From an uncultured Planctomycetia bacterium (lineage in GTDB: Bacteria > Omnitrophota > Gorgyraeia > JABMRN01 > RBG-13-46-9), in assembly GCA_964649665.1 (NCBI GenBank), contig CAZYPU010000001.1, positions 16,428 to 80,427 on the forward strand: a stretch of 64,000 nucleotides of DNA. Direction: 5' to 3'. Below, piece by piece: positions 37,143 to 62,327 of the stretch. The translations under genes and the position numbers were made by a program. The notes beneath the pieces are model-generated. The model searched no databases. It was not told the origin of the DNA and saw only the letters and a program-made list of their open reading frames with translations. Positions within the stretch are counted from its first letter, which is position 1; the number at the start of each line of letters is the position of its first letter.

Positions 37143-37184
37143 AACCACACTCCATCGTGAAGTCTTCCGGCATGCATTTTAGGG

Positions 37185-37578: not shown

Positions 37579-37615
37579 TCCTGTGACACGCCGAAGCCGT
37601 GGATATGCTATATTA
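37579..37615 (+). promoter_or_regulatory. Conserved bipartite upstream motif TCCTGTGACAC-N15-ATGCTATATTA (extended -10 TGcTATATT), shared with the second giant gene
   Basis: Identical motif halves and identical 15 nt spacing are found at 50589-50625, upstream of the 3897-aa ORF. Confidence 0.55.
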
Positions 37616-37681
37616 CTCAAGACAATATTGCGGAGCCGCACACGCGCTTCAATAGTATTATAAAAGGCAAGATATAACCAT

Positions 37682-40600
37682 ATGGGTCAAAATAAAAGCA
37701 TAATATTTAAGGCTATATGTTTCTCCCTTGTAATCACGTTTTGCTTTGAGAACATTCTCTGGGCGAACCCGGAAGCTTTTAAAAAGAATGTCTCAAATGG
37801 CACCCTTCAGGTCCAGTCCAAAATTAACCCCATCGCCACTCCTGAGCTTCTTCATCAGGGGCTTATAGAGTTCTCGCTTAGATACATCGTTCAGGCCGTA
37901 GATGATATCGCGAACATCAATTTCCCCCTAACGCCGGAGGCCCCGCATTACGCCAAAGACATAAAAATCGTCCTTGATTTCAGCCCGCCGACTGAAAATA
38001 AAAAAGAGGGTAAACATAAAGAAGGCGACAACTGGATAGTGCCCTGCACTATTTTTGACAGCCGCGGCCGCTATTTCTGGACGTACGAGGCGGTTATACA
38101 TCCGGATAAAAGTATCTCGTGGAAGAAAAAGATATCCGCGGAATCCGCCATCGTTCCCGAACCCCAACCCCCCGCGCCTCCGGTCGAAGAACCAACCCTA
38201 GCCCCGCAGGCTTCAAGGCCCTTACCTAACCCAAGTGCCTTCCGGGATTTACACCGTAGCGAGGAGGGTGCGCGGTGGCCGTTCGGAAAACGTCAACTCG
38301 CAACCCAAGACCCGAGAAGAGATTCGGACAGGGTGGAACATGCCCTTGGGAAAACGAGGCAAAGATATGAATTAACACAGGTTATGGATAGAATCGTGCA
38401 GGGCGTAAAAGAAAAATTCGGATCAGGATTCGTATTAGCCATAGACGGGCAAAAAGCAACACGCAAAACGACACTTTCAGAAATAATGTCAAAAGGCATT
38501 AGCGATATATCGTCCGGAGACATAGAAGTGCTTAGTTACACAAAAGGTATGTATGAACGGGAAAGAGATTATATGAGAGTTGTCAAAAGGGCCTTACGCG
38601 AGAAGAAGTTAGTTGTTTGCGAGGGGCAGAGCATGGTGCAGATTCTGGAAGAAGGAAACATCTTTCCGGATTTAATCCTTTACCATAAAGCCAACTTAAT
38701 GACGCAATTATATTCCAGTTTTCTTAGGTCCTTTTTATTATCAAAGGCTTACAGGGAACGTATGTTAGATGACGAGAAAAAAGGCCTTTCATTATTGTTG
38801 ACGCTTTGCGATTGGGCGCCGTTCGGACTAATATTCTTTATATGGGAAGTTTATAAAATATTCACAGAAAAAAAATCCGATAAGGAAACGCTTAATGAGT
38901 TGTCAAAAAGGCCTAACTGCGTTACGCTGAATTTCAGTACTTATAAGTTGGGCGGATTAACAATAGAAGATGTATATGGAATCATGACAAGCGTGGCAGA
39001 TTCGGCTAGTTATCCGTCCGTTGCCACAGTCGAACATGGTCTGATAAGCGAGGTCCCGGGTGCGCCTCTTACAGCCGAGGATTACGTCAGGCAAAAAGAA
39101 AAAGAGGGAGCTGAATTTATTCTCCTCTACAGCAGGGAAGGGCGCCTGGTGCGTTGCATGTCGATAAAAGAAGCCAAATACGCCGCCGGAAATATGGAGA
39201 TAGCGGGTATTGCCCTGAGAATCAAGGAGGGAGAGACACAGTTCTTTGAGGCTGGCCGAACCGACTTTGAGACCGGGAAAATCGTAGAGTCGCTGGACTA
39301 CACCGCGGAGATGAAAGAGCCGAAAAAGGTCTATTTCGTAGTACCGATGCACAAGGAAATGAAGCGGCTCCTTCCGGAAACGAAAGACAACCCTTATGGC
39401 GAGGACGCGTTGCGGAAAACGGTATGGCAGCTTCAGGAAGGAAGCAGAATAAACAGGCGTTTCAAATGGCAGCTTATCCTGGTAGATGACGGCACTCCCG
39501 GAAACGCCTCAGCAAAGCTTGCGGAAAAACTTTGGGCCGAAATTCAGGAAGAATATGCGTCCTGGGGAGAAACGCTTGATCCATCGCAGGTTATAATCGA
39601 AAAAATTACGCCTCGGGAAAAAAAGAAAATGAAAAGCCGAAAGGGAGGCGCCGTTCTCCGCGGGTTTAATATTGCCCTGAAAAGCGCATCGCCCGGCGAT
39701 TACATAGGATATACGGACCTGGACATCTCAACCGATATGCGCCAGACAGGGTTTCTATTAAAAGCGCTGGCCGAAGGTGATGCGGAGGTGGCCATAGGTT
39801 CCCGCTGGGCAAAAGGCGGAAAGGGAGAAAAAGTCCCTCCTTCAGGCATAGTATCAAGCAAGGTCTACAACCTTTTGGTCCAAACACTTATGCCGCCTTT
39901 ACGCGGTATTCAGGATACGCAGCGCAGCTTCAAGCTTTTTACAAAGCGCGCGGCAGAAGAAATCTTACGTCACGCCAAAGATAACGGCTTTGCCTTTGAC
40001 ACGGAGCTCCTGCTTTTGGCGAAGCTCTTGAGTTATCGGACAAGTGAGGTCCCAATCGCCTGGATTGATTCGCCCGGGGCCACTACTCTGAGCATGTTTA
40101 CCGACGGGCCAAAGATGGTTTGGAGCCTGTTTAGACAGCGCAGACACATGTTCGGGAAGATGTTCCGCTCCTCGTACATCATGACCCGGTCAGGCGCCAC
40201 AAGCGGTTCCGGCGAAGGGGAACGTCCCCTTGGGCTTATCGGGAAGTGGATGCTGACGCCGGAAGCTAAATTTAAAGAGGACCACCCGGGATGCCGCGCC
40301 GGGGATATAACGTTCATGGCCAGGCGCATAGATTATCCCGAGAGGGATGAGATTGAGATAAAGCTTCGGGCGAGGTGCGTGCCGTTCACGGAGTTTGATA
40401 ATTTCCGGAGGACAGGTGTGGAGGAAATCGATAGCGCGCTGAAAGAATTCCTCTACGCTTTCACATCACTTAAGGTCAAAGGCGTGACGCTTTACATGGA
40501 ACCCAACCGGTACGGCATATACGGCATAGGCACAAAGGACATTATTGCCGTAAGAGGCCCTCTCAGGTTCAGTAAAATTGCCAAAACCCATGAAATAATG

Positions 40601-43600
40601 CATGCGGCCCTTGACGCGGGCGCGCTGACCCTCAAAACAGTGATAGACAACATAAAAGGCGGCGAAAAGGCGCTGAATGAATATATAGGAAAAAATCCGC
40701 GCAGGCAGGTGCCCGGCATGCGGGCTCATTATGCCCTCCGCCTTCTTTTTAGGCAGAGAAATCCAATAAGAGACAAACTTCTTACGAGGTTTTTAAAAAT
40801 TATCCAGCCCGTAAGGGATTTTCTTGACATCCGGCTGTTCGGCGGCTTGAGCTTAGCAGGGCGTGCGGGAATCCTGGCGGTATTCGCGTATGTCCTTGAG
40901 AGTTACGTAGGAACAAATCGATGGCTTTTGCTCTCGGTCATCGCGGTATCTTCGATTATATTAGTGGATGTATGGTATTCTTTATGGGAAAAATGGGAAA
41001 AAACCGGTGAACTTATAAACGGTCTCTTGGGCACGCGAAAAGGGCACGAAACTTTAACGGCAGAAGTAAACGAGATCGTGTTTGATCGGTATCCGGGACG
41101 ACGGTGGATTCCTGGTAATGTGAAAGAAGCGTTGAAGCTTGATGATCCATCGGCGGATACGACATACATAATAGCGAGTTTTAAAAAGAGTAATGTTCCC
41201 ATTGGGTACCTCGCCTTTACGGCCAAATCAACAGACGCGGCGATTACATGCGTGAATCTTTGGATTAATGAAAAACACCGGCACAAGGGTATAGCCCTGA
41301 AGCTATTGGAAAGATTTTTGGAGGAGGCGGAACGCAGGCAGAAAAAAAGCGCAATATTTAGATTGAAAAAAAACGAGGGCATCAATCTGGATGTCGTAAC
41401 AGGGCTTCTGAAGGCCGCCGCGGCTTTGCGGGGAGCGAGGATTGCGATTGTCCCAACAAGTTACGGTCGGCTGATACGCATATGGTTGTATAAATCAAGG
41501 CCGCGGACGCAACTTCTTTCAGCGGCGCTGCCTTTGTCCCTACTGGCCATAGAAGCCGCGAAGGAAGAGCCGATTATCATAAAGCCGTGGATGGAGGCCG
41601 CGTTTATGGCAGGTTTTGCTTTTCTATGCTTGTGTGAAATTATCCGGAAGTATTGGGATGCGATCAAAGAAAACAGGGCGGTTGGATACGCGATTGAAAG
41701 ATTCGCCAATTTGATCAAATGGCTTGATGACTTTTTACCGATCGTATTTTTAGCCGCTATTTTGAGCTTTGTGCCGTGTCCGAAAGTAAGTCCATCCGCG
41801 CATGCCGCCATGGTGACACAACCGCCCGCCGCGGCGGGGGTTGTTAATACCTTGCCAGTTGCAGCGCAAGTAGGCGCGGCCGATATTTCGTCAACGCTGC
41901 TAGACTTCATATCGACACCTGTGTCAATCGGGTTAATGATAGGACTGATTTTTGCTATCTTATGCATGATGTACAGAAAAGTGGCGGCCGCTCTGTTTAA
42001 CAACACGTGCGTATATATAAAAGAGATGCTGGGAGATAAGTATATTAGGTTCTGGGCGCGTTTTCAGGAAGACCGCGAGGCGCTCGAACGGCTTTTTGCA
42101 GAGTCAAGAAAGACCGCGCAGAAATATTCGTCATCGCCGCAAGATAGCGTGGAATTTTATGCCATAGAATGTTACCTTATAGCGCGTCGGAAGGGCAAAG
42201 TCAAGTATATACACTTTTCACAAGAACTGGCCAAAGCGTTTCGTAGAGATCGTCGATTTATCGGGCGGTCTATCGCATGGTACAGATTCAGGGTGCGACT
42301 TAAGTCCCTTTGGGCGCGGATATTGCTTAAAGGTGAAGGATTGGCCGGCGACGGGCTCGAGGATCTGCAAAAAAGTATAAGATACTGCGAATCATTATTA
42401 AGGTTGGACACGTTGATTTACAAAAATAGGGAACAATACGCACGGCAAATATTCGACGCAATAATTAATAACCCCGAGCGTTTCCCGGGCATCAAAGAAG
42501 TTCCCGATCCGGATGATCCCGGAACGCACATGTTGGTGTACGAATCTCCGAATAGTTCCGGCGTAAGAAATCCCAAAGACGGTTTTATAAAACCGCTTTT
42601 AATACCCACTTTAACCGGTATCGCCGCGCCGGCGGCGGGGGCGGTATTAGCGGCTCCCTACTTTGCGGAAATTCCCACATATATTAGTGACATTTTAAAC
42701 TGGTTTGCCTCTATCGGCGCGGGTGGCGCACTTTCGTGGAAGACAATAGCTATATTAGTTACCTTTGTCCCGCTTTTCATTTCCATCGTATCCGCTGTTA
42801 AAGGGGAATCGTTGTCAGGAAAATACCGGGGTATCTGGCGGGAAAGGCTTGAAAAAGCCCTGAGGAAGCACTCGAAACTTAACAAAGACGGCGTAATTCC
42901 GGATCTCGCGACACTTTTGAGTATCCGACACAAATTATTTAGATCAGAAAGAGCAAGCGGCAGTCTTTTGGCAATTTTGCAGGCATATCAAGATTTGCTA
43001 TCCGGCGGAATTATCAAAAAACCGAAATTCGCGCCTTTACACATTTTCGTCCTTCGTGACTTGGGTTTCGTCACTGACGAATTGTGGGCGGAATATGAAG
43101 TGTATATAACCTCAAAGAACAATGATGAAATCAGTGAACCACGGATAAAACTGTGGCATTCTTTGGTGCGGGCGGTTCTTAAAAAAGAAGATATGCTGGG
43201 TAAAGACGGAACTATCGACGATGTAAAAAAGCTGGAGGGCATCAAACCGGACTTCTTTACATCCAGAAAAGGGCGGGCTGGAATCAACGAGGTATACGAA
43301 GCCTTTCAGCGCGCGGCCAAAAAGAAAAACATTCCATATAGGTACGCGCACAAAAGAAAATTCGTATTATATGTGCTTAGGATTCTGGGTTTTTTGACGG
43401 ATGAGATGTGTGGGATAGTCGAGAATATTGATTTCACATTTCCATCGGACAAATTAAAGAAAAAATACCACGCCGCATTGGCGCCGGTGTTACGAAAAAA
43501 GGATATTTTGAACGAGAAGGGGAAAGTGCGGGACATTGATGCTCTTTTACGTGTCAACGTTAAATTATTCCGGGCGCGTAAGGAAGAAGGGAAGGGCGTC

Positions 43601-46600
43601 AGTTTATACAGTATTTTTATTAGCTATCAGAAAAAAGCGAGACTCAGCAGGATAAAGAAGCCGAAGCACGCGACATGGCCTTGCTTTATCCTGTATAGTT
43701 TGGGGTTCGTAACTGATGAAGTATGGAAAGGTTATTTATCCTACCGCAGGAAATTACTGCTAAAAAGAGAGACACGGGCTGCTGAAAGGCAATCTAAACC
43801 GGTGCCCTTTCCCGCTTCATTCAATGTAACGCAGGCGCAGTTATCGGGTGTCCGAAAAGCGCTCGAAAAAATACACGTCCTTGACGAAAAAGGCATGATA
43901 AAATCGCTCGGCGCATTTGATAGTATAACCAGGCAGTCAATTGTTGAAGGCGGAGGCGGCCCCGCGTACGGCATTTTTAAATCAGGCATACAAAGGACAG
44001 AGCAGGCGCTGCCCGGAGGAACGGACTTGTGTCACTATATGCTTTATCACCTGGGCTTTGTAAGCGAGGCTGTGTGGCTGGAATACACACAATATCTGAA
44101 GATAAAAGAAGCGCTGAAAAAAGTCAACATGCTCAACCGCCGGGGCAAAATCCGCGATATCACCGCTCTTCTACGCGTAAATGCAACGTTTTTAAGCAAT
44201 CAGGGCATCTTAGGCGTATACCTATCCTACGTAAGAGCGCATTATGAGTTTAAGCGGGATACGCCTAAAGGCATAAAATTACACTATTACGCGCTATATC
44301 GCCTCGGGTTAGTTACCGAAGAATTATTGCGCGAATACAAATGGTATATCCGGCTGGAGAAGGCGTTACGGACAAGGTTAAAACTTGACCAAAACGGGAA
44401 AATTCGCGACCACGCGACCCTTTTAAGCATAAATACGAATTTCCTTGAAAAAGAAGGCCTTTTGGAAGGATACAGGCTTTATATGGAAGCCCATCCCGAA
44501 CTTGCCAAAGAAACACCCGAAGGCACGGAACCCCATCATTACCTTCTACGCCATTTAGGGTTATTTGCCAAGGCGCTATTCACGCAGGAGAGCGAGGGAT
44601 ACGCACAGCTTAAAAACGCGCTTAAGGAGAGCGAAAAGCTTACCCCCGAAGGCGAAGTCCGCGACCTCAAGGCTCTTTTAAGCATAAACATAGAGTTTTT
44701 CGAAAAGAAAAAAGTTCTTGAAGCCTATCAATCCTGTCTGAAAACCGTCGCCGAAGAATTACCGGAAGGCGCAGAGGGCTGTCATTACGTCTTATACAGT
44801 TTAGGGCTTGTTTCGGGCAACCTCTGGACCGAATACACATGGTACTGCCGCCTGAAAAAGGCGCTCAAAGGCGCCGGGAAGCTCAGCCCCGAAGGCATTA
44901 TTAAAAACCTCACCAGCCTGCGCGGCATAGACTACGCATTTTTTAATGAGCATGGCATTGTGAGAATATCGCAATTCTATACACGCCGGTATCCCGGATT
45001 CTGGAGAGGGATTCCGCGCGGCGCGGATGGGTGGCGCTATCTTTTATACAATCTCGGGTTCGTTGACGATGAGTTGTGGCAAAACTATCTATGGTATGCG
45101 AAGATAAGCGTCACGCTTAAAGCGGCCGGAAAACTCGATAAGCAGGGAGCAATCAGGGACATAAACACCCTTTCAAACATCGGCGCAGCGTTTTTTAAAG
45201 AACACGACATCTCGGGCATATACCAGGCATATTTAGAAGAAAACCCTGATTTTATTCAAAGCGTGCCGGAAGGGGTGGAACCGCGGCATTATTTTTTGTT
45301 TATTTTAGATTTCATGCCGGACAAATTCTTGCGCGAATACAAATGCTGCAGCGAGATGAAAAGAGCGTTAGAAAAAGCCGGAAAACTGAATAAGGCAGGG
45401 GAGATTCCCGATTTGGCGACGCTGCTCGGCATGAATAAAAAATTCTTCTCTGAAATTGGCGCATTACCTGCATACGAGGCATACCTTGAGTTTTACCCCG
45501 AGCTTGAGCATCATGCGCCTGAGAAGGAGTCCGCGGAGTGCGATGCGCTTCACCGGATGGGGTTTGTTTCAAAAGAGCTCTATCAGAAATACATGCTGCA
45601 CCTCAAGGTAAAACAAATTTTGAAAAACTCCGGAAAACTCGACAAAACGGGTAAATTCCGAGATATAGACAGCTTCTTGAGCGTAAACTCTGGTTTCTTA
45701 AGGGAACATAAAATCTTAAACAGTGCCGACGCTTTTTTCAGGAAAAACCCGGAACTGATGAAGAAAATGCTCGCCACTGCGGACATATCCCACTGTTTCC
45801 TGTATTGTTTAGGTCTTGTTTCCGAAGAACTTTGGAATAAGTACGAAACGCGTTGCCCGTTCAAAGCGGTGCTGTGGAAAGAAAGGCTCCTTGATTCGCA
45901 CAGAAGAATTCGCGATTATGACGCACTGTTTAGTATAAACGCCGCGTTTTTGAAGAAGCACGGACTGCTAAGCTTATATCAATCTTACGTACAAGAGCAT
46001 CCGGGTTTTGCTGAAAAACTGCCGGAGGGAGCGAATCCGCGACACTATTTCCTGTACCGGATGTACCGGATGGGGCTTGTGTCTGACGAGGTATGGAACG
46101 GATACATAAAGTGCGTGACCACGCCGGAGTTTCTTAAGCTAAACGACGAGAAGCGAATGTGGTATGTTACACGCCGCTATTGTCTTGAGGCCGCGCGGAT
46201 AATAAGGCCGGGAGAGATTATACAGGAGGCCGCGATCCTCTTAAACATAAGGGAACCGGTTTTTCGCCGCAAAAAAACAAAAGAGACGTGGCGTGAAGCG
46301 ACGAGATATTACAGCAGGCAATGGGAAGAAGGGCTATTGGGAAAATTTGAGCTCGAAAACCTTGATATATATATACTAAAGGACCTGGGACTTGCGACAG
46401 CGTCATCATGGGATGAGTATCTTGCCTATTCTGCCCGGGAGAGAGCGGCGCGGATTGAGAAATCCGCTATGACTGCGAGGGGAAGCGTTCTTAACAGAAT
46501 CAAAGGCCTGGCTGTGGATATCCAAAAAGCTATCGAGGAAGGCGATATCGCTTCCGCGGCGGCCGCCCTTGATATGATCGATAAGCTGTGTGAAGGACAT

Positions 46601-50536: not shown

Positions 50537-50588
50537 CACGCCGTAACAGCGTGTAAATCAACCCTGTTAGTATTTTCAATAGTTACCT

Positions 50589-50625
50589 TCCTGTGACACT
50601 TGCCCCACTATTTTATGCTATATTA
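50589..50625 (+). promoter_or_regulatory. Second copy of the TCCTGTGACAC-N15-ATGCTATATTA motif, directly upstream of the 3897-aa giant ORF (ATG 9 nt after TATATT, so likely leaderless)
   Basis: See 37579-37615. Confidence 0.55.
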
Positions 50626-50633
50626 AATCTTAT

Positions 50634-53600: not shown

Positions 53601-56600
53601 ATAGCGCAGGCAGTTAATGCCTGTCATAGCGCAGAGCCTCATGGCACTTTTCCCGGGGGATTACTGATTAAGGAGCTCAAGCCGACTAACATTAAAGTAC
53701 GGCCAGACAAAACCGTTTGCCTGGTGGATCTCGAAAGTGCGGTCCCGCTAAATTATGACTGGGTGCGTAATCCTTCCGGAGTGCCGCCGGTAGCGAGACT
53801 GGTGATGACCAGCGCTTTCAGCGAGGATAAAAACGCTTTTAAAGACAAATCCAAAGCGGGCTTAATCCTCTTAGGGCAAAAATTGGATGTGCCGTGGGAT
53901 ATTTATAGTTTTGGCGTGGTATTATCGAGGATGCTGCATGAATATAACATAACGCTGGATGACGCCGCAGAGATTAAGGAAGCAGCAGTACAAACCGATA
54001 CGATGAGAAGGTTCTTGGAAAGAGCAGAATTTGCCAAGGGACAATTTAAGCGGTCGATCGCCGGCATGAAGGAGATTATAAAGAAATGCACGATAAAAGA
54101 TCGAACGAAGCGCTACCGGGATATGGGCGAGGTCATCGAGGCGCTTAAAGATTGCATTGGCGTGGTTGATAAAGAATTCAGGGGCAAAATTCCCGCTGAG
54201 CTGCCGTCGCAGGAACCGCGCGGCACCACGTCCCAAGAGAGCATTGAGCCTAAAGCAGCCGCGGCCGAGCCGCCGGCGCCGCGAGTCGCGCCAAAGGCGA
54301 CAGAGCCATTGCCGGAAACTGCAGGAACAAATTCAGGCCCAGATTCGAAATCGCCTCTGTCCCCGTCTATGCTTCCGGGCGGGGAAGAACAGCCGTATAA
54401 GCCCGGCCAATACGTATACGAACACCCGTATAAGTGGTTTTTAATTTCCGCAGCAGGGTTGTCAGCCAATTTGCTTGCGGCGGCCTTATGCCTGGTCCCG
54501 GCTATATTGATTTCATCTTCCATCAACCTTTCCACGCCACCGCTTATAGCGCTCGGCGGCGCGCTATTATATTGCGCAGGCGCTCTGAACGCGATAATAT
54601 TTGCCGTTAACATTCTCGAAGCCGGCATGGCGTTTATCCGGGGAGACGTTGTGGTAAAAGACATCCCGTCGGAAACGGATAAAATTAAAAAATACCTTTA
54701 TACCGCCAGCATACCGCACGAACTGGGCCACTATCTTATGGCGAGGTTATTCGGATTAAATGTGAAATTTTCCACAATCGGGGTTGATTGTAAAGATATC
54801 GACGTGTTTGAAGTAACCGATTATACGAATATGCGCTACGCGATTAATATGATGAAAGAACGCGGCCTTTTCCCATTCTCAAGCTCGCAACCCGGCAAAT
54901 TTAATCGGGTTAAAATCGGGGGGAGTAATGAATTCGTTTTTAATGTTACCGAAAAAGACAGATATTTGTTAGAGCAAATGGTTCGGGCCTGGGCTTCGGA
55001 GAAAAGCCTTGACGCCGGCATTGAAGTGACAATGGATAACCGTCTCATCAACGTTTATAAAGGCCATGACCAGTACGCAATTCTGAGTTATTCGGTGGGG
55101 ATGGGAGAAAATTCAGAAATTGAAATCACTATCTATAATCAACGCGTAGAGTATCCATATAAAAGTCAGGGATTGATGGCGCTTTTACAAACCTATATCT
55201 TTTATCTGTCTAAATCGGACAAAGTCACTTATTGGAACATAGAAGGTACGGACGGAAAGGTATTCGCGAAAACAATGGAGGATAAAGGTATCTTAACGGA
55301 TGTAAAATACAAGAAAACTTCCCGCCTCGAAGATCATACCGAAGTGCGCTATGCGGAAGCGAGCATTAATAAAAACGTAGTGGCACAAAGAGCCAAGGAC
55401 TATCCGTTCGCGGCCGAGCCGCCGTCGCCGCAGGGTCCGAAAGCCGAATTCATGGTCCCGGGCGCGGCGCTGGATACAGGCGCGGCGGCGCTCGGAGCGC
55501 TCTGGCCGCTCGGGTTAGTCGGCGCTCTGCCGAGAACACTGCGGCGCCGGTTCGGGGAGCCCTTTATGGATTCGATATTTAACCGCGGCAGGTGCTTTAT
55601 GCAGCCGGCTATCCCGCCCGAGATGGGTGGCAGCGCGACCGAGTGCGAGGCGCCGAAGCCTGTGAATATTAGCGCTGAAAAAAAGGAGGCGTTTTTTAAT
55701 GAATTAGGTATAGGAGAGGAAGCCCTCGCAGCCGCTATCTTGAAATCCCCTACACTCGCAGGGCTTAACCCAGCCCGTGTAAGGAGGGCCTGGAGAGATA
55801 AATTAGGCATAGAAAAAGAAGCCCTCGCGGCCGCTATCTTGAAATGGCCTAAAATTGCAGGCTATAATGTTCCAAATAATATCAAGCCGAAACTGCAGAT
55901 TCTCAAGATGTTTAATGTCGGAAAAAATAAAATAATGGACTTCCTTATCAGGATAGTTGATTTTAACAGCAAGGCATTGGAATTTATTTTAGAGGCCTCA
56001 AAAGCGTCTTCTTTTGAGATAAAAGACATCAAGACATTAATAAGGATCTATAGAAAACTGAATAAAGCTGTCAAAGCTAAGACAAAAGTTACACTTGCCG
56101 GATGGTTCCGGGAACGAATAACCGATGATATTAATTTGACGGTGAAGCCAATTCTGTCGGATATTATAACCGAATTGCAGTCAGAAGAGACTGTGGATGA
56201 GGATTTGTGGGCAATGATAAAAGAAGCGAAGGCAATATTTGAGAGACAAGAAGAGAATGCCGTTGCCAGAGGCGAAAGAGAAGAACCTCGTAAATTTTCT
56301 CCTATTGCCTTATTTAGAATAGATTCGGCCCTTTACTATAGAGCCAGAAGAATAGGAATGTTGCGCAGGCTGCATTATATTAAACCCAGGTTAGGGTTGC
56401 GCAAGGAAGATACCGGCAGGCTTATTCAGGAGATAATGAAAGCAGAAGAAGAGTTTGACCGGCGTGAAGAGCGGGATGTCCGACGAGGATTTAGGGACAG
56501 CGCCCGCCCATGGATTCGTAGAAGGCTTTGGGAAATCAACCCATACCTGTATGATTTTTTACATAATCATAGGCCGGATTTACTCAAAACCTGCGTGCCT

Positions 56601-59600
56601 GCCGGCCTCCCGGGAAAGGGAAACCGCCACCAAAAGCTTCCAGATAACATATCTCTGGTAGGAAGAGAGGTTGATACTGAAGGGTTGGATTTAGATAATG
56701 TTTACTCTGACGTCAAGTTTTCCAAACCCGCTAAAGCGTCCGGTATAGGTATTTTTGCAAGAAACGAAGAATTGCTGGCAAAGATTGAAGAGATGATATC
56801 CGCCGGTGTCTGGGATCGGCGTGAAGCGTTCATTGTGAAGGAACGGTTGGGACTTAATCCGGAGGGAGCCAGGCGTTCCCTGCAGGAAATTGCGCATGCC
56901 CTGCGCATTACCAGAAACAGGGTATGGCAGATTGAGACAGACGCTATCCGGAAAGCGCAATTTTGGCTGAGGAAATCCCAACACCCTGTATTGAACGCAG
57001 AAAACGATGGACCGGCGTCTGGCACTGCGTCTGAACAGACAACAGCTACCGCCTCGGCCAAGTTGGCACCGCAAAAAGAACATGGTGGCACGTCGTCAGG
57101 AAATTCTTACGGCGCCGCAATCGGCGCGGGGCTTACCGGATTAAGCTGGCAGGCGGGATTATGCTTCTTCGCGTTCCTATTCGTTTACGAGATAGCCCGG
57201 CAGGTCTGGTACGCGAGATTCTACAAGAATTTACTCGAGAGCCACTCCGGGCCTGCCCGAATAATCAATTCCTTCTTCTCAAGCTCCTTCCATTTCCCGC
57301 GGGTCATAGAAGATTTCATAAAGGACCATATCACGCAGACGCTACTTAGCGTCGTTTCAAGAATAAGATTCCAAAGCCCGATCGCCAAAGCTCGGCTGGT
57401 TGATGGTTCAGTGGCACAGTTTCTTCAGATGCCGGTTGTATTTATGAGCACGGATTCAGGCGGCGAGGCTATAAAACGACCCGCCACCCTGCCTGTGAGG
57501 GTAAAAGAATTTTCTCAGTTGGATTCGATGCCGCTACACGGCTCGATAATGGAGTTGCCGATTTCCAGTAGAATTAAAAAAAGGTTGGCACGTGGAGGCG
57601 TCAAAACTATCGATGAACTTAAAAACATGACGCTCGACAAAATTCGTCAAATTTACGGGATTGGCGAAAAATCCATGACTATTATAAAAGCTATAAAGGA
57701 TAGGCTTGATGAATTGGCTGATATAGAGATGATGAAAAAAGAGCAATTAGCTAAGGAAGAGAAAAAGGCAGAAAATAAAAGGCGGCGGGAAAGACTAAAA
57801 TATATACGTGACGAGTTAGGCGTTAGCAGACTAAAATTCATTTCACTATTAAATGCCGCTGGGGCCGCATCCACGATAGAGATGTTGGGATATCTAAGAG
57901 GGTTAACCATTATCCCGGATCGGGTTATCGATAGTGCGGAGAATTTATTGCGACACGAGCGCGAAATAGCAAGAACAAGAGCGGTTCAGCTAGAAGCAAA
58001 AAGACAATTGGTTTCCTGCATTACGGCGTTTGAACAATTAAAAGAAAAACTTAAGACAGCAGATTTTGATGAGAGGAGGAGCGAACTTACGATTGCGCAA
58101 ATCTGGGTTGAGCCGGATTACCATACAAAGGAAATAGGCATTCACGGTTTTATGGATACAATCGCTGATAAAATAATCGCTCTAGATATTAAACCTCAAA
58201 ACCACAAGGCATTAAGGGCGCTTTTTGAATTAAGTGTAAGATATTTCAGCGGCAATATCAATGTTTTTAGAACCGTTTTGGCAAATATAAATAATGTAGA
58301 AGAACTGATAGAATTCCCTGCTTATATTGGATCCAACGGATTTAATCGCGAAAGCATAGATGAAGAAATGCGGCGTTTCCGAGAATGGCTACGTTCTAGA
58401 AGGGCAATACTTCCTTTCGAAACGGGCACATTTTCGTGTCCTTCTTGGTGGCCGTATGTGCCGAATGAGCTGGCTCCCGTCACAAGTGTCGGCAGGAGAA
58501 AATATTCCAAGGACGAAAGAGTTTCCGTAGGATATGGAGGATTTTTTGAAGGGTATTTAGATTTTATTATTGTCGGCGATACAATGCGAATTGGCGAGAT
58601 TCACGGTAAAATAGAAATGCACAGATTAATCCCAGAGGTTCGAAAGAAAGTAAGCGGCTGGGAAAAGTTGGCGCTAGAAGAAGCCATTAAAGAGGCCGGG
58701 CGGCGAGGGGTCAAGACGATTTTGTTCTCCCCTCCATTCGCGCAATACAGAGCGCTTAGCCAATGGAATACGTCTAACCCCGATTCGGATATAGCTTACA
58801 GGATTTATAGTAACCTGCCTTTTGATTCAGGGTTTAGATTAAAGATTAGAGAAAAAATCGTTTTTAGCGAAAATTTCCGCAATCAATTATTCTCTCATCT
58901 TGTATGGCAAAGAGACGCCGCCCCGGCCGCAGTCGCGGCCGAGCCGCCGGCGCCTCTGGCATCGGCCGGAGCCGCGGGCGAAACCCAAACACCCGCCGCG
59001 CGGAGGATAGTCGATACTATAAATGGTTATGAAGAAATCTTCCCGGGAGGCAACGCAGTCGGCCGTTATATAGATCCTGAAGGTAATCCGAGGAATTGCA
59101 CACTAAGCAGGGCGTGTTATGACAATGACTTCTGCAGAATACTGGCGGCGGATATCGGCAATGGCAACGCCGGAAAGAAAGCCCTCTCCATAGGCGCGGG
59201 CTCGGGTGTGCTTGAGAGTCGGCTAAACGAGGCCCATGGCCTTGAAGTTACATGTATAGATATAATCTCGAAATTCATGCCGTGGGATATGCGGGGGTCC
59301 ATGGCGTTTACTCTTGCCGACGGTGAGCATCTTCCGTTTGCGGACAATAGCTTCGATATTGTCATCTTATCGGAAAGCATAGGGCATATGAAACTTGATA
59401 TCGCCCTGGCTGAAGCGTTCAGGGTCTTGAAGCCGGGAGGAGTGATTCATATACTGACGCCTGATCCTGCGAACAAACTGTCCTGCGATCCCAGTTTGTT
59501 CGCGGCGCTAAAATATTCTCCCTATGATATCGCTCAAATTATACATGGATTGAAGAATTCAGGTTTTGAAAATGGTGAAAGAATAAAAGATGACAACCGC

Positions 59601-62327
59601 TCGGCATTCCTGGGGCTTATATATGTGCGGGCCGAAAAGGCTGCGATAACCATTCCCTCCGAGCCGGCGCCGGCCACGCAGTCAGGTCACGCGACCGCCG
59701 CCGTAAAAATACGCGAACTTACAGTTGATGAGTTAGGCGGATATTCAGTTGACCTGATAGCGTTGGAAGATAAGATGCCGCCGGCTGCCAGGGAAGATTT
59801 AGTAATACTATTGGAAGAGATTAAGAGGTGCGCTTCTCAATGTCAGCATTTTGTAATTTTAGGCGCTTTTGATAACGGTCAATTGATAGGATACACGATA
59901 GGTATGTCCGTATCATGGCTTATCGACTATTTCACGAATAAAAAGATAGCCGCTCCGGCATTCATATCCAGAATAGCAAAAGACAGCAAGAATTGGTTTA
60001 TTCCCAGGATAGTAGTTTTACCGGAATACAGAAAACATGCCGTGGCTTACAGGCTCTTTCAGCAACTATCAGGTATGGCCCGAGATAGAAACGCTCAAAG
60101 GTTTTATGCTGTTCTATTGGACGAGAGATTAGCCGCGACCCTTGAGGAATTAGGCGCTAAGCGGATAAGTCGATGGTTTAGTCTGTTAACTTCCCTCAAA
60201 GGTCAAGGCGGCGTGCATCTGAAAATACCCGTAAATTTATTTTCCGCCGGCCACACAGGTAACACAGGCGGACAGAAAAAGTACCGTTCAAAAGCCGCCG
60301 ACCCGACCGCAGGCGCGGCCGAGCCGCCGGCGACGGAACCAGCGCCGGGGGCAAGTCCAAGCTCAGATTCGGAGGAGTCTATTTCGGTACATAGTGATTT
60401 TGGAAGACGACAGTTGCTCGGATTACCCGATAAAGCACGAATGCTGAAATACATCGCTGGTAACAAAGTTATTGAGTTAGGATGCGGAGGAGGTTCGGTT
60501 ACGGGATTGATAAAACAAAGGCTTCCTGATGGCCGTGTTGTAGGCATAGATTTTGAAGAAAGATTTTTAAGAAAAGCGAGAAACGATTACCCGACTTGCG
60601 AGTTTTATCATAGAAACCTTCTGGAATGGGATGACATCGATAGCTTTAAAGGGCAATTCAGCACGGTAATATTATCAAGCGCATTACACGAGATAGAAGG
60701 TGAAGACACCAGAGAGAGGGTATTAAGGACAGCATATGAACTATTGGAGAATGGCGGCGTTATAATTTTCCGTGATGGAGTGAAACCCAAAAACAAGGAA
60801 GAAGAGGTTGAAGTAATATTAAAAACCCCATATGCAAAAGAAAAGTTTGAGCTATTTGTCAAGGAATATAGACATAGAAAAATTAGGTTCATCTATACGG
60901 ATGAAACGCATACGCGTATTCGTATTACCAGTTATGATCTGCATGATCTCCTCTGTAAATATTATTTTGAGGGTGAACTTTGGAAAAGAGACATGAGTGA
61001 GTCTTTCGGACAAATGAATATGGGGGAATATCTTGATTTAATCGGCAGGTATTTTGCTATTACGCATCATGAAAAATACATAGCGCCTTACCTAAAAGAA
61101 TTGTGGGAAAAAGATTTTGAAGTAGTAAACAAAGACTATCCCGAAAGCCATACCCTTATAGTAGCGTCAAAACCGGCCGAGCCGCAAATTTCTAAGCCGG
61201 ATGGTACGAGAACCGAAATTCTGCAGGCCGCAGCCGCGGCCGAGCCGACATCGTCGAAGCCTGCCGAGGGCGGCAGAACGATATTCAAATTTTTTTCAAG
61301 TCAAAAGGAAGTAGTTGAGATATATCGGGATGGAACGCTTAAGGTGGCAATAAAAAGACCGGACAGGGACCTCCGGGATATTTTTGAAGAATGGCTTAAG
61401 AACGAACAAGACCCCAACGTGAAGGAAGCGATTAATTTAGCGCTTGCAAAATTGCCCTTTGACACCGATAGACAAGAAGGGGTCGATACAAAAGGCGCCG
61501 CCGCGGCCGAGCCGCCGGCGACGGGGGACTATAAAACGAATATGCAGGCAATTATAAAGCCCGGTGATATCTCAATCGAAGACAGCAAATTTCTTTTAAG
61601 CCGCGCTTCGGAATACCTCAAGGAGAAGCCGGTCGATATGTCGATAGACCTTTCCCTGATACCGAAGGAAGACATGGAGAGGAACATGGAAATATGGGCC
61701 TATATAATAGCACTTCATGATAAATACGGGTTTAATGCCCACTATATATTTGAAGGGAAGGATAAGAAATATAAAGCATCGGCGGAGGAAACGCTTCTCG
61801 CGAAAATAAAAGATTTATCCTTTTGGAAACGCCTTGATGTTAAGGCCATAAAGGCGCGCGTAACCGATGAATCGCGGCCGGCCGCTATGAGAATAAGCAT
61901 CATGCCGCTCAAGAAACTGGAGGCAATGCCCGTGATACCCGAAAATACTTTTCCGGTGGCCATGTCAGAAGGGCAAAACTTAGACGGCGTACCCTTGTGG
62001 GATTTTGTGGGCGCGGCGAGCCTGGGCCTCGCGCAGGCGGCTTGCGCGAAATTAATAAGGGAAAATAAAGCCGGCTATTTGGAAACCATAGAGCGTAAGT
62101 TTCTCCCGAGAATGCAGGCTATATACGAAAGGCTATTTCCAGGGAAGGAAGTAAAAGAAATAGTTACGAGGCAAACAATCCTCGAAATGGTAAACGAAGA
62201 TCCTTCCGCCGTAAGGGCGCGAATAAACCTGCTCATAGAGCTTGCCTTGCCGCCCATCGTGCGCCTGGCCCTGCGGGATCTAGACGACTACTACGCCAGT
62301 CTCCGCACCCTGCTAAGAGCCGCGTAA
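50634..62327 (+). CDS. Giant multi-domain membrane-associated protein (3897 aa): Fis-type HTH x3, Hanks-kinase-like, M50-like HExxH, sigma70 region-4-like, RNAP alpha-CTD-like, two SAM-methyltransferase domains and a GNAT domain
   Basis: Single uninterrupted 11.7 kb ORF. N-terminal leader homologous to that of the previous giant ORF. Multiple hydrophobic segments. AAAEPPAP-type linkers occur between modules. Confidence 0.85.
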   Translation: MLHIKRSIWVKFIAMGMACLFFLDTISWAYPVDRSEITTLAAQSMFNSILDAITKKPSERYSYRKRLEKEMVCIIEMALRALDRKNPDIDWGSHLNINAALNTMQHDGRYRKLMEVLDIPRRLEDEKGEYIEILVKTTRPSGRQKEFTIKFRGEKLDDLSDRGKIEIISAEGNTAPAPNTDIEAPKGPYGTGVKRVKVPFKEKNLEARKKKALSFIKIKSAEYCHSELWDNIWNSLVYNGGVAEIGAVLKRKINRVLRSPPVVRKKEVAMEAVKSLATSLALKENSGSVDRALMRDFRIAVLLLLDIFVPGIHEEFKKQDILDGEHFFPGIFDRLSIRGIPAAPAADMAEPQSPKPEGPAQGPKAEFMIPGAAPDMGAAALGALWPFGLVGALPRTPRRRFGEPLIDSLFNRGKRFMQPAIPPEMGGAVAEPASPKPAHGTGTSSDLKASLPSYTEETLYALEQAGGNQAKAAGILNIGLSAVSERKSRIRRVAVKINDNATLKRLLPLPSYTEETLEALKKVGGNQVKAARVLSIIQQTVSQRIIAIRRAAARIGDKATLERLAKALLSLPAYTEATLEALEQSQGKQKEAAGILKISQATVSRRISAIRSIATRIDDKTTLERFNEVLKVSKGAAPGDSVSSRGRQGAAIGAGLTTLSWQAGLCFFAFLFVYEIARQVWYARFYKNLLDSHPKATRIINSFFSSSFHFPRVIEDFIKNHITQPLLNIFSRIRFQSPIVQVRLAGIGRTITVFRMPVELMMSEKSPQKPPGHALGELPASTAVPSEPLGAPEGAHSQPDKLEQVRILLRTLIQKINLFFFGIFSQKKQSREVGLEDLVFERAVIIGEGSFSRVFRVPHKDNGVDYALKLYCKAPPGYSLKSAVELIDYQMRIAREYPQLIKSGIMPKYFTKGSCYFDGDRLSLAPISEKAYPCLLMEYIKGDDLSSLSDLDYHVGTKLVRDALAEGQDQYIIAALYNILRDKLDEAYSIAQAVNACHSAEPHGTFPGGLLIKELKPTNIKVRPDKTVCLVDLESAVPLNYDWVRNPSGVPPVARLVMTSAFSEDKNAFKDKSKAGLILLGQKLDVPWDIYSFGVVLSRMLHEYNITLDDAAEIKEAAVQTDTMRRFLERAEFAKGQFKRSIAGMKEIIKKCTIKDRTKRYRDMGEVIEALKDCIGVVDKEFRGKIPAELPSQEPRGTTSQESIEPKAAAAEPPAPRVAPKATEPLPETAGTNSGPDSKSPLSPSMLPGGEEQPYKPGQYVYEHPYKWFLISAAGLSANLLAAALCLVPAILISSSINLSTPPLIALGGALLYCAGALNAIIFAVNILEAGMAFIRGDVVVKDIPSETDKIKKYLYTASIPHELGHYLMARLFGLNVKFSTIGVDCKDIDVFEVTDYTNMRYAINMMKERGLFPFSSSQPGKFNRVKIGGSNEFVFNVTEKDRYLLEQMVRAWASEKSLDAGIEVTMDNRLINVYKGHDQYAILSYSVGMGENSEIEITIYNQRVEYPYKSQGLMALLQTYIFYLSKSDKVTYWNIEGTDGKVFAKTMEDKGILTDVKYKKTSRLEDHTEVRYAEASINKNVVAQRAKDYPFAAEPPSPQGPKAEFMVPGAALDTGAAALGALWPLGLVGALPRTLRRRFGEPFMDSIFNRGRCFMQPAIPPEMGGSATECEAPKPVNISAEKKEAFFNELGIGEEALAAAILKSPTLAGLNPARVRRAWRDKLGIEKEALAAAILKWPKIAGYNVPNNIKPKLQILKMFNVGKNKIMDFLIRIVDFNSKALEFILEASKASSFEIKDIKTLIRIYRKLNKAVKAKTKVTLAGWFRERITDDINLTVKPILSDIITELQSEETVDEDLWAMIKEAKAIFERQEENAVARGEREEPRKFSPIALFRIDSALYYRARRIGMLRRLHYIKPRLGLRKEDTGRLIQEIMKAEEEFDRREERDVRRGFRDSARPWIRRRLWEINPYLYDFLHNHRPDLLKTCVPAGLPGKGNRHQKLPDNISLVGREVDTEGLDLDNVYSDVKFSKPAKASGIGIFARNEELLAKIEEMISAGVWDRREAFIVKERLGLNPEGARRSLQEIAHALRITRNRVWQIETDAIRKAQFWLRKSQHPVLNAENDGPASGTASEQTTATASAKLAPQKEHGGTSSGNSYGAAIGAGLTGLSWQAGLCFFAFLFVYEIARQVWYARFYKNLLESHSGPARIINSFFSSSFHFPRVIEDFIKDHITQTLLSVVSRIRFQSPIAKARLVDGSVAQFLQMPVVFMSTDSGGEAIKRPATLPVRVKEFSQLDSMPLHGSIMELPISSRIKKRLARGGVKTIDELKNMTLDKIRQIYGIGEKSMTIIKAIKDRLDELADIEMMKKEQLAKEEKKAENKRRRERLKYIRDELGVSRLKFISLLNAAGAASTIEMLGYLRGLTIIPDRVIDSAENLLRHEREIARTRAVQLEAKRQLVSCITAFEQLKEKLKTADFDERRSELTIAQIWVEPDYHTKEIGIHGFMDTIADKIIALDIKPQNHKALRALFELSVRYFSGNINVFRTVLANINNVEELIEFPAYIGSNGFNRESIDEEMRRFREWLRSRRAILPFETGTFSCPSWWPYVPNELAPVTSVGRRKYSKDERVSVGYGGFFEGYLDFIIVGDTMRIGEIHGKIEMHRLIPEVRKKVSGWEKLALEEAIKEAGRRGVKTILFSPPFAQYRALSQWNTSNPDSDIAYRIYSNLPFDSGFRLKIREKIVFSENFRNQLFSHLVWQRDAAPAAVAAEPPAPLASAGAAGETQTPAARRIVDTINGYEEIFPGGNAVGRYIDPEGNPRNCTLSRACYDNDFCRILAADIGNGNAGKKALSIGAGSGVLESRLNEAHGLEVTCIDIISKFMPWDMRGSMAFTLADGEHLPFADNSFDIVILSESIGHMKLDIALAEAFRVLKPGGVIHILTPDPANKLSCDPSLFAALKYSPYDIAQIIHGLKNSGFENGERIKDDNRSAFLGLIYVRAEKAAITIPSEPAPATQSGHATAAVKIRELTVDELGGYSVDLIALEDKMPPAAREDLVILLEEIKRCASQCQHFVILGAFDNGQLIGYTIGMSVSWLIDYFTNKKIAAPAFISRIAKDSKNWFIPRIVVLPEYRKHAVAYRLFQQLSGMARDRNAQRFYAVLLDERLAATLEELGAKRISRWFSLLTSLKGQGGVHLKIPVNLFSAGHTGNTGGQKKYRSKAADPTAGAAEPPATEPAPGASPSSDSEESISVHSDFGRRQLLGLPDKARMLKYIAGNKVIELGCGGGSVTGLIKQRLPDGRVVGIDFEERFLRKARNDYPTCEFYHRNLLEWDDIDSFKGQFSTVILSSALHEIEGEDTRERVLRTAYELLENGGVIIFRDGVKPKNKEEEVEVILKTPYAKEKFELFVKEYRHRKIRFIYTDETHTRIRITSYDLHDLLCKYYFEGELWKRDMSESFGQMNMGEYLDLIGRYFAITHHEKYIAPYLKELWEKDFEVVNKDYPESHTLIVASKPAEPQISKPDGTRTEILQAAAAAEPTSSKPAEGGRTIFKFFSSQKEVVEIYRDGTLKVAIKRPDRDLRDIFEEWLKNEQDPNVKEAINLALAKLPFDTDRQEGVDTKGAAAAEPPATGDYKTNMQAIIKPGDISIEDSKFLLSRASEYLKEKPVDMSIDLSLIPKEDMERNMEIWAYIIALHDKYGFNAHYIFEGKDKKYKASAEETLLAKIKDLSFWKRLDVKAIKARVTDESRPAAMRISIMPLKKLEAMPVIPENTFPVAMSEGQNLDGVPLWDFVGAASLGLAQAACAKLIRENKAGYLETIERKFLPRMQAIYERLFPGKEVKEIVTRQTILEMVNEDPSAVRARINLLIELALPPIVRLALRDLDDYYASLRTLLRAA
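51981..52530 (+). other. Three tandem ~56-aa repeats, each a Fis-type (HTH_8-like) helix-turn-helix
   Basis: LPSYTEETLYALEQAGGNQAKAAGILNIGLSAVSERK, LPSYTEETLEALKKVGGNQVKAARVLSIIQQTVSQR and LPAYTEATLEALEQSQGKQKEAAGILKISQATVSRR resemble the NtrC/Fis C-terminal HTH (AL..TGGN..KAA..LGI.R.TL.RK). Confidence 0.55.
53135..54170 (+). other. Domain: eukaryotic-like (Hanks-type) Ser/Thr protein kinase fold with an atypical catalytic loop (IKELKPTN in place of HRDLKPxN); possible pseudokinase
   Basis: Gly loop IGEGSFSRVF, the YALKL Lys, helix-C Glu, hinge LLMEYIKGDDL, VDLES in the DFG position, and subdomain IX DIYSFGVVL. The catalytic Asp is replaced by Glu (GAG at about 53673-53675). Confidence 0.7.
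54714..54746 (+). other. HExxH zinc-metalloprotease-like motif (PHELGHYLMAR) in a transmembrane context, similar to site-2 protease (M50)
   Basis: HELGH followed by ..AR, as in RseP/SpoIVFB, and preceded by hydrophobic helices. No downstream LDG motif was found, so this is tentative. Confidence 0.35.
56815..56970 (+). other. Domain: sigma-70 region 4-like HTH
   Basis: RREAFIVKERLGLNPEGARRSLQEIAHALRITRNRVWQIETDAIRKAQ fits the r4 pattern (ER...L.LRYGL.....TLEEIG...gvTRERIRQIE.kALRKL). Confidence 0.6.
57519..57720 (+). other. Domain: RNA polymerase alpha-subunit C-terminal domain (alpha-CTD, HhH)-like
   Basis: MELPISSRIKKRLARGGVKTIDELKNMTLDKIRQIYGIGEKSMTIIKAIKDRL against the alpha-CTD pattern LELSVRSANCLK.A.I.TVGELV..TE.EL..I.NFG.KSL.EIKE.L. 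Confidence 0.6.
59180..59465 (+). other. Domain: class I SAM-dependent methyltransferase (Methyltransf_11-like), first copy
   Basis: LSIGAGSGV (motif I), LPFADNSFDIVI, LKPGGVI. Confidence 0.65.
59855..60165 (+). other. Domain: GNAT-like acetyltransferase
   Basis: QLIGYTIGM ... IVVLPEYRKHAVAYRLFQQL. Confidence 0.45.
60463..60785 (+). other. Domain: class I SAM-dependent methyltransferase, second copy
   Basis: VIELGCGGGSVT (motif I) ... VVGIDFEERFL ... FSTVILSSALHEI ... LENGGVIIF. Confidence 0.65.

Follow-up and report, generated by a model that had tools for sequence, protein, structure and literature searches.

Contig CAZYPU010000001.1, from an uncultured bacterium, carries two giant open reading frames (ORFs), G1 and G2, in tandem on the same strand of the 64-kb stretch analysed here (the window). 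The genes of this class are built on a constant chassis with exchangeable cargo, lie behind a class-specific promoter-like box and turn over rapidly. G2 is a heavily loaded member of what we term the 'bookend' family, defined by a leader plus an N-domain of ~170 amino acids (aa) at one end and a C-terminal domain of ~255 aa at the other; we describe it as constant chassis and exchangeable cargo because the ends are conserved and the middles unrelated among members. We lean towards the reading that G1 and G2 are Sec-exported modular carriers of an uncultured Omnitrophota-like lineage, whose cargo would act at the cell surface or in a host or prey cell under regulation through the box. The principal elements are as follows.

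37573..37615, + strand: G1 box (bipartite motif 37579-37615), TTAC-N2-TCCTGTGACAC-N15-ATGCTATATTA, with the ATG 67 nucleotides (nt) downstream
37682..50536, + strand: G1, a 4284-aa mosaic with leader, dark regions, glycosyltransferase family 2 (GT2)-like domain, HExxH motif, GNAT domain, hydrophobic segments, repeats and chorismatase-like module
50583..50625, + strand: G2 box (bipartite motif 50589-50625), exact twin of the G1 box, with the ATG 9 nt past the motif end
50634..62327, + strand: G2, 3897 aa, bookend family member
52..4992 (frame 1..4992), + strand: G0, a third large ORF of 1646 aa, 3' part, at least 1663 codons

Together, G0, G1 and G2 occupy 46% of the window, as the original prediction, made from the DNA letters alone, had described.

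Constant ends and exchangeable middles

A search for relatives, in which G2 aa 1-1200 was run through HMMER against the full set of 1.84 billion representative proteins, returned only 67 matches. For about 20 of the 67, the match covers G2 aa ~5-180 and lies without exception at the extreme N-terminus of the relative itself; these proteins range from 114 to 7388 aa. Profiles of the two end-domains both match 13 complete proteins, G2 included, ranging from 669 to 7388 aa and again always at the extreme termini, so that the family comprises at least 13 complete proteins. G2 scores 223 bits for the N-domain (profile columns 4-201) and 433 bits for the C-terminal domain at aa 3612-3897, with the family ending ...ALPPIxR...LLxAA. 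Neither end-domain has a match in Pfam, NCBIfam or the PDB, and NCBIfam holds no model for the leaders, the end-domains or the 669-aa relative P0014. AlphaFold2 models calculated from the family alignments predict a Rossmann-like α/β core followed by helices for the C-domain (predicted local distance difference test, pLDDT, 81; predicted template modelling score, pTM, 0.82). For the N-domain (pLDDT 82), they predict a leader helix at residues 5-27 and disorder over 31-41, then three to four helices with a five-stranded sheet.

Between these ends, members carry a PfkB sugar kinase (P0031, 846 aa), a CheR methyltransferase (P0041), an APH-type kinase (P0025), a methyltransferase with an ARMT1-like phosphatase (P0021) or GcvT fused to GcvP (P0056). 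The middles show no similarity in 74 of 78 family pairs, including pairs that are 60-79% identical at both ends; P0025 and P0031, for example, are 72% identical at the N end and 79% at the C end, with unrelated middles. The small members possess a single hydrophobic segment, the leader, and the large ones have more. The domain combination of G2, originally presented as a unit, is thus exchangeable cargo on a constant chassis, with ends common to proteins down to 669 aa.

G1 matches the N-profile only over columns 7-53, corresponding to the leader and the TLAxQS motif, and on this account we place it outside the bookend family. The bookend C-terminal domain has no match in G1 or G0, and G0 matches neither profile. 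The G1 and G2 leaders are nevertheless alike, as had been claimed, sharing 10 of 26 residues (z = 5.5, with 0 of 300 composition-preserving shuffles as good), and W[AG]xP after a hydrophobic stretch was found in none of the window's remaining ORFs. What the two proteins have in common is limited to the box, ~50 N-terminal residues and a Pro-rich linker; beyond these residues, the N-domains and C-termini show no significant similarity. The term paralogous, as first applied to the pair, therefore holds for the box and the first ~50 residues and fails for the bodies, which are unrelated.

G0, listed at the outset as a third giant ORF, has no detectable sequence in common with G1, G2 or the 67 relatives, and no Pfam match. 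Its frame remains open through 17 codons back to base 1, so the window edge probably cuts off the 5' portion of a longer gene; no gene on record encodes the exact 1646-aa product. A C-terminal domain common to G1, G2 and G0 was sought and rejected: pairwise alignment gave no significant result, within the window a profile built on the ~35-residue tail picks out only G2, and what is left is a class-wide tendency to end in A or AA. A C-terminal Ala is present in 42 of 72 family-set proteins vs 5 of 70 background ORFs, and Ala-Ala in 29 of 72 vs 1 of 70. Many family-set tails follow the pattern φφφLP-loop-amphipathic helix-(A)A-COOH, and the tails in the window are ILANA in G0 (4960-4989; …RILANA), FIRSA in G1 (50500-50533) and LLRAA in G2 (62290-62324). 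Membership of G0 and G1 by way of the tail is unproven, and that of G0 in the G1/G2 class is not shown.

Other searches delimit the family further. Single-sequence word-index searches with G2 aa 1-350 and with the C-domain gave no match; these negatives are not reliable, because the representative library does contain clear relatives of both regions, and the index seems to miss most such proteins. Querying a protein index with the C-domain profile yielded only four divergent C-domain fragments. G2 aa 340-840 has no relatives in the GTDB representative genomes, and the C-domain profile has no match among viral contigs. P0108 (272 aa), one of the four fragments and considered as a stand-alone C-domain protein, was rejected as the tail remnant of a giant gene broken by an insertion sequence at locus L098. 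A second leader type, consisting of MKK, a hydrophobic core and then (G)YALRP(M)A, was observed in P0001, P0002, P0005, P0016, P0020, P0027 and others that share the helix-turn-helix (HTH) module of G2; these proteins may be a sister class with its own sorting motif.

The promoter-like box and the turnover of loci

The 37-nt motif TCCTGTGACAC-N15-ATGCTATATTA occurs at exactly two sites in the window, against 0 expected in shuffles, which bears out the claim of a bipartite motif with identical spacing before both giants. Relaxed versions (TGTGACA-N17-21-TAnnnT and TTAC-N2-TnyTGTGAC) return only the same two sites in the 64 kb. The box includes an extended -10-like element, TGcTATATT, and the GTTAAAGATAAAAAAG context upstream of the G1 box is common to loci L092 and L097. 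Scanning a metagenome collection with the 20 fixed motif bases identified seven contigs representing six distinct sites, and all six have a hydrophobic-leader ORF downstream. In five of the six, this ORF is large or cut by the contig end and starts within 72 nt of the box. Specifically, the ATG lies 7-9 nt past the box in L087, L088, L089 and L090, as in G2 (9 nt), and 45-72 nt past it in L086; in L092, ~1 kb of non-coding DNA separates the box from the giant ORF. In an alignment of eight loci from different metagenomes, TTAC-N2-TCCTGTGACAC-N14-T-ATGCTATATT is invariant. Variants of the box precede P0014 (TCCTGTGACAC-N15-ACGCTATACT, with the ATG 6 nt later), P0056 and the 2338-aa gene of L097.

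The 64 nt around the G2 box (50562-50625) are 97% identical in L090 and the downstream proteins differ, that of L090 containing HATPase and HEAT repeats; by this comparison, the regulatory element is more conserved than the coding sequence it drives. The mRNAs are predicted to be leaderless, because an ATG 6-9 nt past the -10-like element leaves no room for a leader or a Shine-Dalgarno sequence. Co-regulation of G1 and G2 through the common box is plausible.

Additional motifs were noted around these sites. Upstream of the GcvT-GcvP bookend gene, L094 3570-3680 contains four CATGACA copies, two AAGTTGTTACA copies and a variant box, TTACATTGCTGTGACAAT...TATGATAAT; the repeated motifs suggest repeated regulator sites. 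Upstream of the G1 box (37184-37498), the window has an imperfect hairpin (arms 37336-37413 and 37421-37498, 73% complementary) and a second inverted repeat (37184-37205 and 37311-37332, 91%); Rfam returned only hairpin- or miRNA-type chance matches upstream of G1.

Loci that are syntenic or comparable differ in their giant genes. L092 is syntenic with the window over ribonucleotide reductase (RNR, 76% nt identity), YchF (65%), a 185-aa lipoprotein, the box and a giant ORF, which has a G2-like leader and a different body (methyltransferase, 5-formyl-tetrahydrofolate cyclo-ligase and two kinases). In L097, the interval from AccA to leucyl-tRNA synthetase (LeuRS) contains a tandem of the 2338-aa gene and a bookend gene; the window has a ParE/Phd pair there instead. 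L095 carries a tandem pair of 7388 and at least 2571 aa. At L098 2208-8819, which is syntenic with the P0055 locus through its upstream YgjP-like and FMN_bind genes, a DDE transposase splits the giant gene into fragments. Because these loci differ at a conserved backbone, the class behaves as fast-turnover, often tandem insertions.

Two relatives have, in place of the box, a 5' untranslated region (5'UTR) resembling a cyclic di-GMP (c-di-GMP)-I-class aptamer over the full length of the model: P0070 (L097 9780-9869; 52.7 bits, E 7e-12) and the second L095 giant gene (30346-30422; 47.7 bits, E 2e-10), both below the gathering score of 59 (RF03167). In L097, a terminator-like hairpin follows the riboswitch-like aptamer. 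Rfam detected no such element for G1 or G2. After the box in L092 (6407-7418), a ~250-nt structured stretch opens with ATATTCTAGATAAAA, as does the L097 riboswitch, and closes with a hairpin resembling an intrinsic terminator (~6625-6665); three tandem repeats (~70 nt start to start) and further repeats follow before the giant ORF. This stretch has no significant Rfam match and may be an unassigned riboswitch or small RNA.

Composition of the giant proteins and of the window

The modules identified within G1 and G2, all on the + strand, are listed below.

37682..37837, +: G1 leader, aa 1-52; N-domain profile columns 7-53 only, iE 6e-11
39401..39853, +: G1 aa 574-724, weak GT2 / AglJ-like domain (PF00535 20.9 bits, TIGR04182 26.6 bits)
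41153..41356, +: G1 aa 1158-1225, GNAT acetyltransferase core (PF00583, E 2e-5 on the segment)
42542..42670, +: G1 aa 1621-1663, hydrophobic module NPKDGFIKPLLIPTLTGIAAPAAGAVLAAPY, copy 1; copy 2 at 47723-47851 (aa 3348-3390)
42833..46441, +: G1 aa ~1718-2920, ~14 divergent ~84-aa repeats, 27-45% identity, without family assignment
48578..49720, +: G1 aa 3633-4013, chorismatase-like module, two RidA/YjgF domains plus FkbO/Hyg5_N (PF01042, PF21168)
50634..51158, +: G2 leader and N-domain, aa 1-175; cleavage-like ISWA↓YP, TLAAQSMF motif, helical and five-stranded N-domain
51678..51950, +: G2 aa 349-439, Gly/Ala-hydrophobic and basic module, copy 1; copy 2 at 55413-55667 (aa 1594-1678)
51975..52532, +: G2 aa 448-633, three Fis-type HTH units (PF02954)
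52560..52925, +: G2 aa 643-764, hydrophobic module (…LSWQAGLCFFAFLFVYEIARQVWY…), copy 1; copy 2 at 57093-57455 (aa 2154-2274)
53154..54116, +: G2 aa 841-1161, divergent protein kinase domain (PF00069, 30.5 bits; kinase relatives found)
54261..61520, +: six G2 AAEP(P) linkers at domain borders, starting at 54261, 55410, 58935, 60315, 61236 and 61503
55683..56954, +: G2 aa 1684-2107, mTERF-like repeats (1684-1802, PF02536) and sigma-70 region 4-like HTH (2063-2107)
57531..57692, +: G2 aa 2300-2353, RNA polymerase alpha C-terminal domain (CTD)-like helix-hairpin-helix (PF03118, E 6e-6)
59184..60758, +: G2 aa 2851-3375, S-adenosylmethionine (SAM) methyltransferase, GNAT, SAM methyltransferase (PF08241, PF00583, PF13649)
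61467..62327, +: G2 conserved C-terminal domain, aa 3612-3897, ending …ALPPIVRLALRDLDDYYASLRTLLRAA

As proposed, both proteins are true mosaics, in which divergent enzymatic and nucleic-acid-binding domains are interspersed with hydrophobic segments and Pro/Ala linkers. Pfam and NCBIfam supported most of the domains initially listed, with the glycosyltransferase and protease assignments being weak. The GT2-like match of G1 falls below the PF00535 cut-off of 23.3 bits, and the M50-like HExxH match of G2 reaches 17.5 bits in Pfam; HExxH motifs occur in both proteins. The chorismatase-like module scores 97.5 bits against TIGR04444, below the cut-off of 325, and the sigma-70 region 4-like HTH is matched by PF04545 and TIGR02393. 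Because the NCBIfam scores are all far below the trusted cut-offs of the families, we regard the G1 and G2 domains as divergent domains and not orthologues. The G1 leader has an n-region with K, a 12-residue h-region (AICFSLVITFCF) and a c-region, ENILWA↓NP, followed by a TLQVQS..NP motif. Hydropathy indicates ~10 hydrophobic segments in G1 besides the leader, and the leader plus three to six in G2, which contains at least nine Pfam domain types. The HTH triplet, the kinase, the hydrophobic module and the 84-aa repeat recur in other relatives at varying positions, the Fis-type HTH module in ~25 of them and the ~84-aa repeat of G1 in P0019.

Duplicated modules are similar at the nucleotide level. 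The G1 hydrophobic copies share 105 nt at 96% identity, with 31 of 43 codons identical and two synonymous-only vs ten non-synonymous differences. The Gly/Ala-hydrophobic copies of G2 (77% aa and 88% nt identity) have six synonymous-only vs 18 non-synonymous differences, and its hydrophobic copies (292 nt at 89% identity, 74 of 100 codons identical) have eight synonymous vs 18 non-synonymous. Identical DNA in the module cores, together with fewer synonymous-only than non-synonymous differences, points to recent copy-paste or gene conversion, not to ancient conserved repeats. All six AAEP(P) linkers are encoded by GCGGCCGAGCCG(CCG), six matches vs 0.08 expected.

The region has an even GC content (44-51%), and the window holds ~45 other genes. 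G1 and G2 are flanked by housekeeping genes (ribonucleotide reductase, YchF and a Mur-ligase/FolC-like gene, with TrmE, AccA and LeuRS further downstream). tRNA genes were found neither in the window nor in L086, L089, L090, L092 or L094; the two in L095 lie over 400 nt upstream of the giant gene there. Elsewhere in the window, three α/β-hydrolase (Hydrolase_4) paralogues surround an AMP-binding acyl-CoA-synthetase-like gene (11758-15990), and a RibD_C-domain protein (24589-25596) has a prepilin-type N-terminal methylation motif that is internal (aa 215-238), not N-terminal; it may be a fused or mis-called gene. A ~95-nt intergenic palindrome resembling REP/MITE elements, with arms GTCATTGCGAGG...CCTCGCAATGAC, lies at 5035-5172, 7795-7933 and 62414-62505, with degenerate copies near 21065 and 35362 (10 arm matches vs 0.24 expected) and a 78%-identical copy at a different intergenic site in L092 (5348-5427).

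Export, its alternatives and comparison with known systems

The anatomy of a Sec signal peptide, according to the von Heijne rules, comprises a basic n-region, a hydrophobic core and small residues at positions -3 and -1. The ~30-residue leader consensus, M..K..YSIWFK-AIAIxLVCLFLV-N(D/T)IS-WA↓xP, has a basic n-region, a hydrophobic core of 12-13 residues and a c-region of S/A/L-W-A before xP with small residues at -3/-1, and the TLAxQSxF motif follows ~10 residues past the leader. From this anatomy and the positive-inside rule, we infer export of the G1/G2 class.

Under the carrier reading, the constant parts would be the box, the leader and the TLAxQSxF motif, to which only the G2 type would add the ~170-aa N-domain and the ~255-aa C-terminal domain. 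The variable part would consist of divergent cytoplasmic-type enzyme and nucleic-acid-binding modules between linkers, together with hydrophobic segments in the large members, and this cargo would be gained, lost and duplicated quickly. Transcription would usually start at or beside the ATG, given where the box is sited, and the leader would route the chain via Sec and the signal recognition particle (SRP). Small members would then be released or retained beyond the cytoplasmic membrane, large ones would be stitched into it by their internal hydrophobic segments, and the constant end-domains may serve sorting, retention or assembly. The cargo would do its work on the cell surface or inside a host or prey cell to which the bacterium is attached. 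Control of expression would fall to a class-specific regulator that acts at the box, with c-di-GMP as a further switch in some relatives; the c-di-GMP link fits a change of lifestyle. Earlier studies view the giant proteins of Omnitrophota as host-interaction factors, which suggests a host or surface role here too (Seymour et al, 2023, PMC10066038; West-Roberts et al, 2023, bioRxiv 10.1101/2023.11.21.568195). Because the cargo needs ATP, SAM or DNA, an exported site would be sensible only if the final target were another cell or an enclosed compartment.

Several observations weigh against this reading. ATP, SAM, tetrahydrofolate (THF) or DNA, on which the cargo depends, are unavailable outside the cytoplasm, the housekeeping-looking GcvT-GcvP fusion is hard to square with export, and the leader could be an uncleaved anchor. 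Pfam and NCBIfam detect no adhesin, lectin or known secretion-system domain in G1 or G2, no conserved secretion genes are adjacent in the six contexts examined, and G1 has the leader only, without the N-domain body or the C-domain. Sigma-70-type promoters have -35 and -10 hexamers 16-18 nt apart, and a scanner for them made no call at either window box, where GTGACA (-35-like) and TATATT are separated by 20 nt, outside the Escherichia coli sigma-70 range; since the scanner rejects this pair as a sigma-70 promoter, a class-specific regulator or sigma factor more likely recognises the invariant upstream half. As for the lineage, P0055 is named '[Candidatus Omnitrophota bacterium]' by NCBI; the window LeuRS is 62% and 59% identical to metagenome-assembled genomes named Planctomycetia/Planctomycetota and 57% to Omnitrophota, with nothing above 62% among GTDB representatives. 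The label 'Omnitrophota-like' for the source organism carries real uncertainty.

The cargo types and the GcvT-GcvP member favour the main rival, membrane-tethered cytoplasmic scaffolds, a doubtful but serious alternative in which the leader would be an uncleaved anchor or have inverted topology, the modules would work in the cell's own cytoplasm, concentrated at the membrane, and the end-domains would oligomerise. Every cargo domain that could be identified is cytoplasmic in type (SAM methyltransferases, kinases, GNAT, HTH, GcvT/GcvP, PfkB), the internal hydrophobic segments of large members could return domains to the cytoplasm, and Nielsen and Lui (2026, bioRxiv 10.64898/2026.06.07.730766) class 46% of Omnitrophota long proteins as having transmembrane (TM) helices only, with the bulk cytoplasmic. 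The leader, however, is basic before its core and acidic or neutral after it; the core spans only 12-13 residues past an internal Lys and is followed by a conserved small-x-small (SWA, AWA), and the small members lack a second hydrophobic segment that could return the chain.

It is improbable that G2, and perhaps G1, is a polyprotein cut at the AAEPP linkers into separate enzymes, possibly by its own HExxH module. The six identical linkers do lie exactly at domain borders, HExxH is present in both proteins, and West-Roberts et al (2023) raise cleavage of giant proteins by embedded peptidases. The AAEP(P) linker is, however, absent from G1 and from all 67 relatives and hence no family feature, its identical codons could equally well be the scar of a recent recombination or duplication, and the protease assignment is as weak as noted above. 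An artefact, whether a chimera, decaying pseudogenes or a known type of megaprotein, is very hard to credit. Internal repeats could in principle mislead assemblers, but G1 and G2 are not assembly chimeras, because identical products of 3897 and 4284 aa are found in independent JGI, ENA and NCBI assemblies: two JGI metagenomes and an ENA MEGAHIT assembly yield the identical G2 on three contigs assembled independently of one another, and the longest contig carrying the genes spans 84,338 bp. The source samples are JGI 3300025824 and 3300022553 and ENA ERZ27245787. The frames are uninterrupted, with many in-frame domain matches, and the termini are conserved among the 13 complete proteins. Mis-assembly and known megaproteins had both been named beforehand as grounds for abandoning the interpretation; there is no sign of the former, and Pfam and NCBIfam show no nonribosomal peptide synthetase (NRPS), polyketide synthase (PKS), RHS, toxin or adhesin domains in either protein. 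The latter result, along with the cytoplasmic type of the cargo, also disfavours the surface-adhesin option entertained at the outset.

The resemblance first noted to giant multi-enzyme ORFs stands, the closest described being those of Omnitrophota, namely the Archaeovorin type (West-Roberts et al, 2023), class 1 of Nielsen and Lui (2026) and the giants of Seymour et al (2023). Omnitrophota multi-enzyme giants likewise have many unrelated, divergent cytoplasmic-type Pfam domains on one chain with none dominating; PF08241 and PF00583 are among the commonest domains of the catalogue (both are present in G2, PF00583 in G1), an N-terminal signal peptide with scattered TM helices is the commonest architecture, conservation between genomes is likewise poor, and the lineage is uncultured and probably host-dependent. 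Catalogued giants differ in size, at 10 thousand amino acids (kAA) or more ('giant' being at least 30 kAA), from G1 and G2 at 3.9-4.3 kAA, with relatives reaching 7388 aa, and, unlike the Archaeovorin type, in which they are common, G1 and G2 have no SecA_DEAD, C39 or S8 domains by Pfam. The passages retrieved from these papers make no mention of the box, the leaderless start, the N- and C-domain bookends, single-enzyme members below 1 kAA, cargo swapping or c-di-GMP riboswitch-like leaders.

The architecture also recalls other systems. Autotransporters of the type V secretion system (T5SS) and CTD-bearing cargo of the type IX secretion system (T9SS) follow the same logic of a constant N-terminal export signal, a variable passenger and a constant C-terminal domain. 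Unlike in the T5SS, the bookend C-domain is modelled as α/β plus helices rather than a β-barrel and has no Pfam autotransporter match; unlike in T9SS cargo, it comprises ~255 aa rather than an ~80-aa β-sandwich and has no Por_Secre_tail-type match in Pfam or NCBIfam; and, in contrast to both, bookend passengers are cytoplasmic-type enzymes. Polymorphic toxin and effector systems likewise replace payloads quickly on a conserved delivery module and occur as tandem related genes, whereas in the bookend family it is the middle that changes between two constant ends, none of the payloads belongs to a toxin family, and the contexts examined showed no adjacent immunity genes. Surface protein genes controlled by c-di-GMP-I (GEMM-I) riboswitches resemble the two relatives with an aptamer-like element and terminator in the 5'UTR, with the difference that the relatives' scores of 47.7 and 52.7 bits are below 59 and that G1 and G2 lack the element.

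A bolder extension of the carrier reading, which we offer only tentatively, is that the box, leader, TLAxQS motif and N- and C-domains form an undescribed export or delivery chassis of Omnitrophota-like episymbionts, with the C-domain recognised by unnamed machinery. If so, arbitrary cytoplasmic-type enzymes, even glycine-cleavage subunits, would be delivered into or onto a host cell, and the giant proteins would be heavily loaded versions of the chassis.

No feature of Omnitrophota and comparable ultra-small, host-dependent bacteria is more conspicuous or less well understood than their giant mosaic proteins, whose size of 10-150 kAA puts them almost beyond study. The present locus shows such proteins being built, in at least one lineage, on a constant frame of promoter-like box, putative export leader and two new end-domains, and the same frame serves proteins of 669-1200 aa with a single enzyme. 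Sequence profiles are now available to find the class, and its small members suit reporter fusions and structure work, offering a direct route to the export question. The class-specific box and the c-di-GMP riboswitch-like leaders provide a regulatory lead, and the cargo swapping documented at a syntenic locus bears on how such genes grow.

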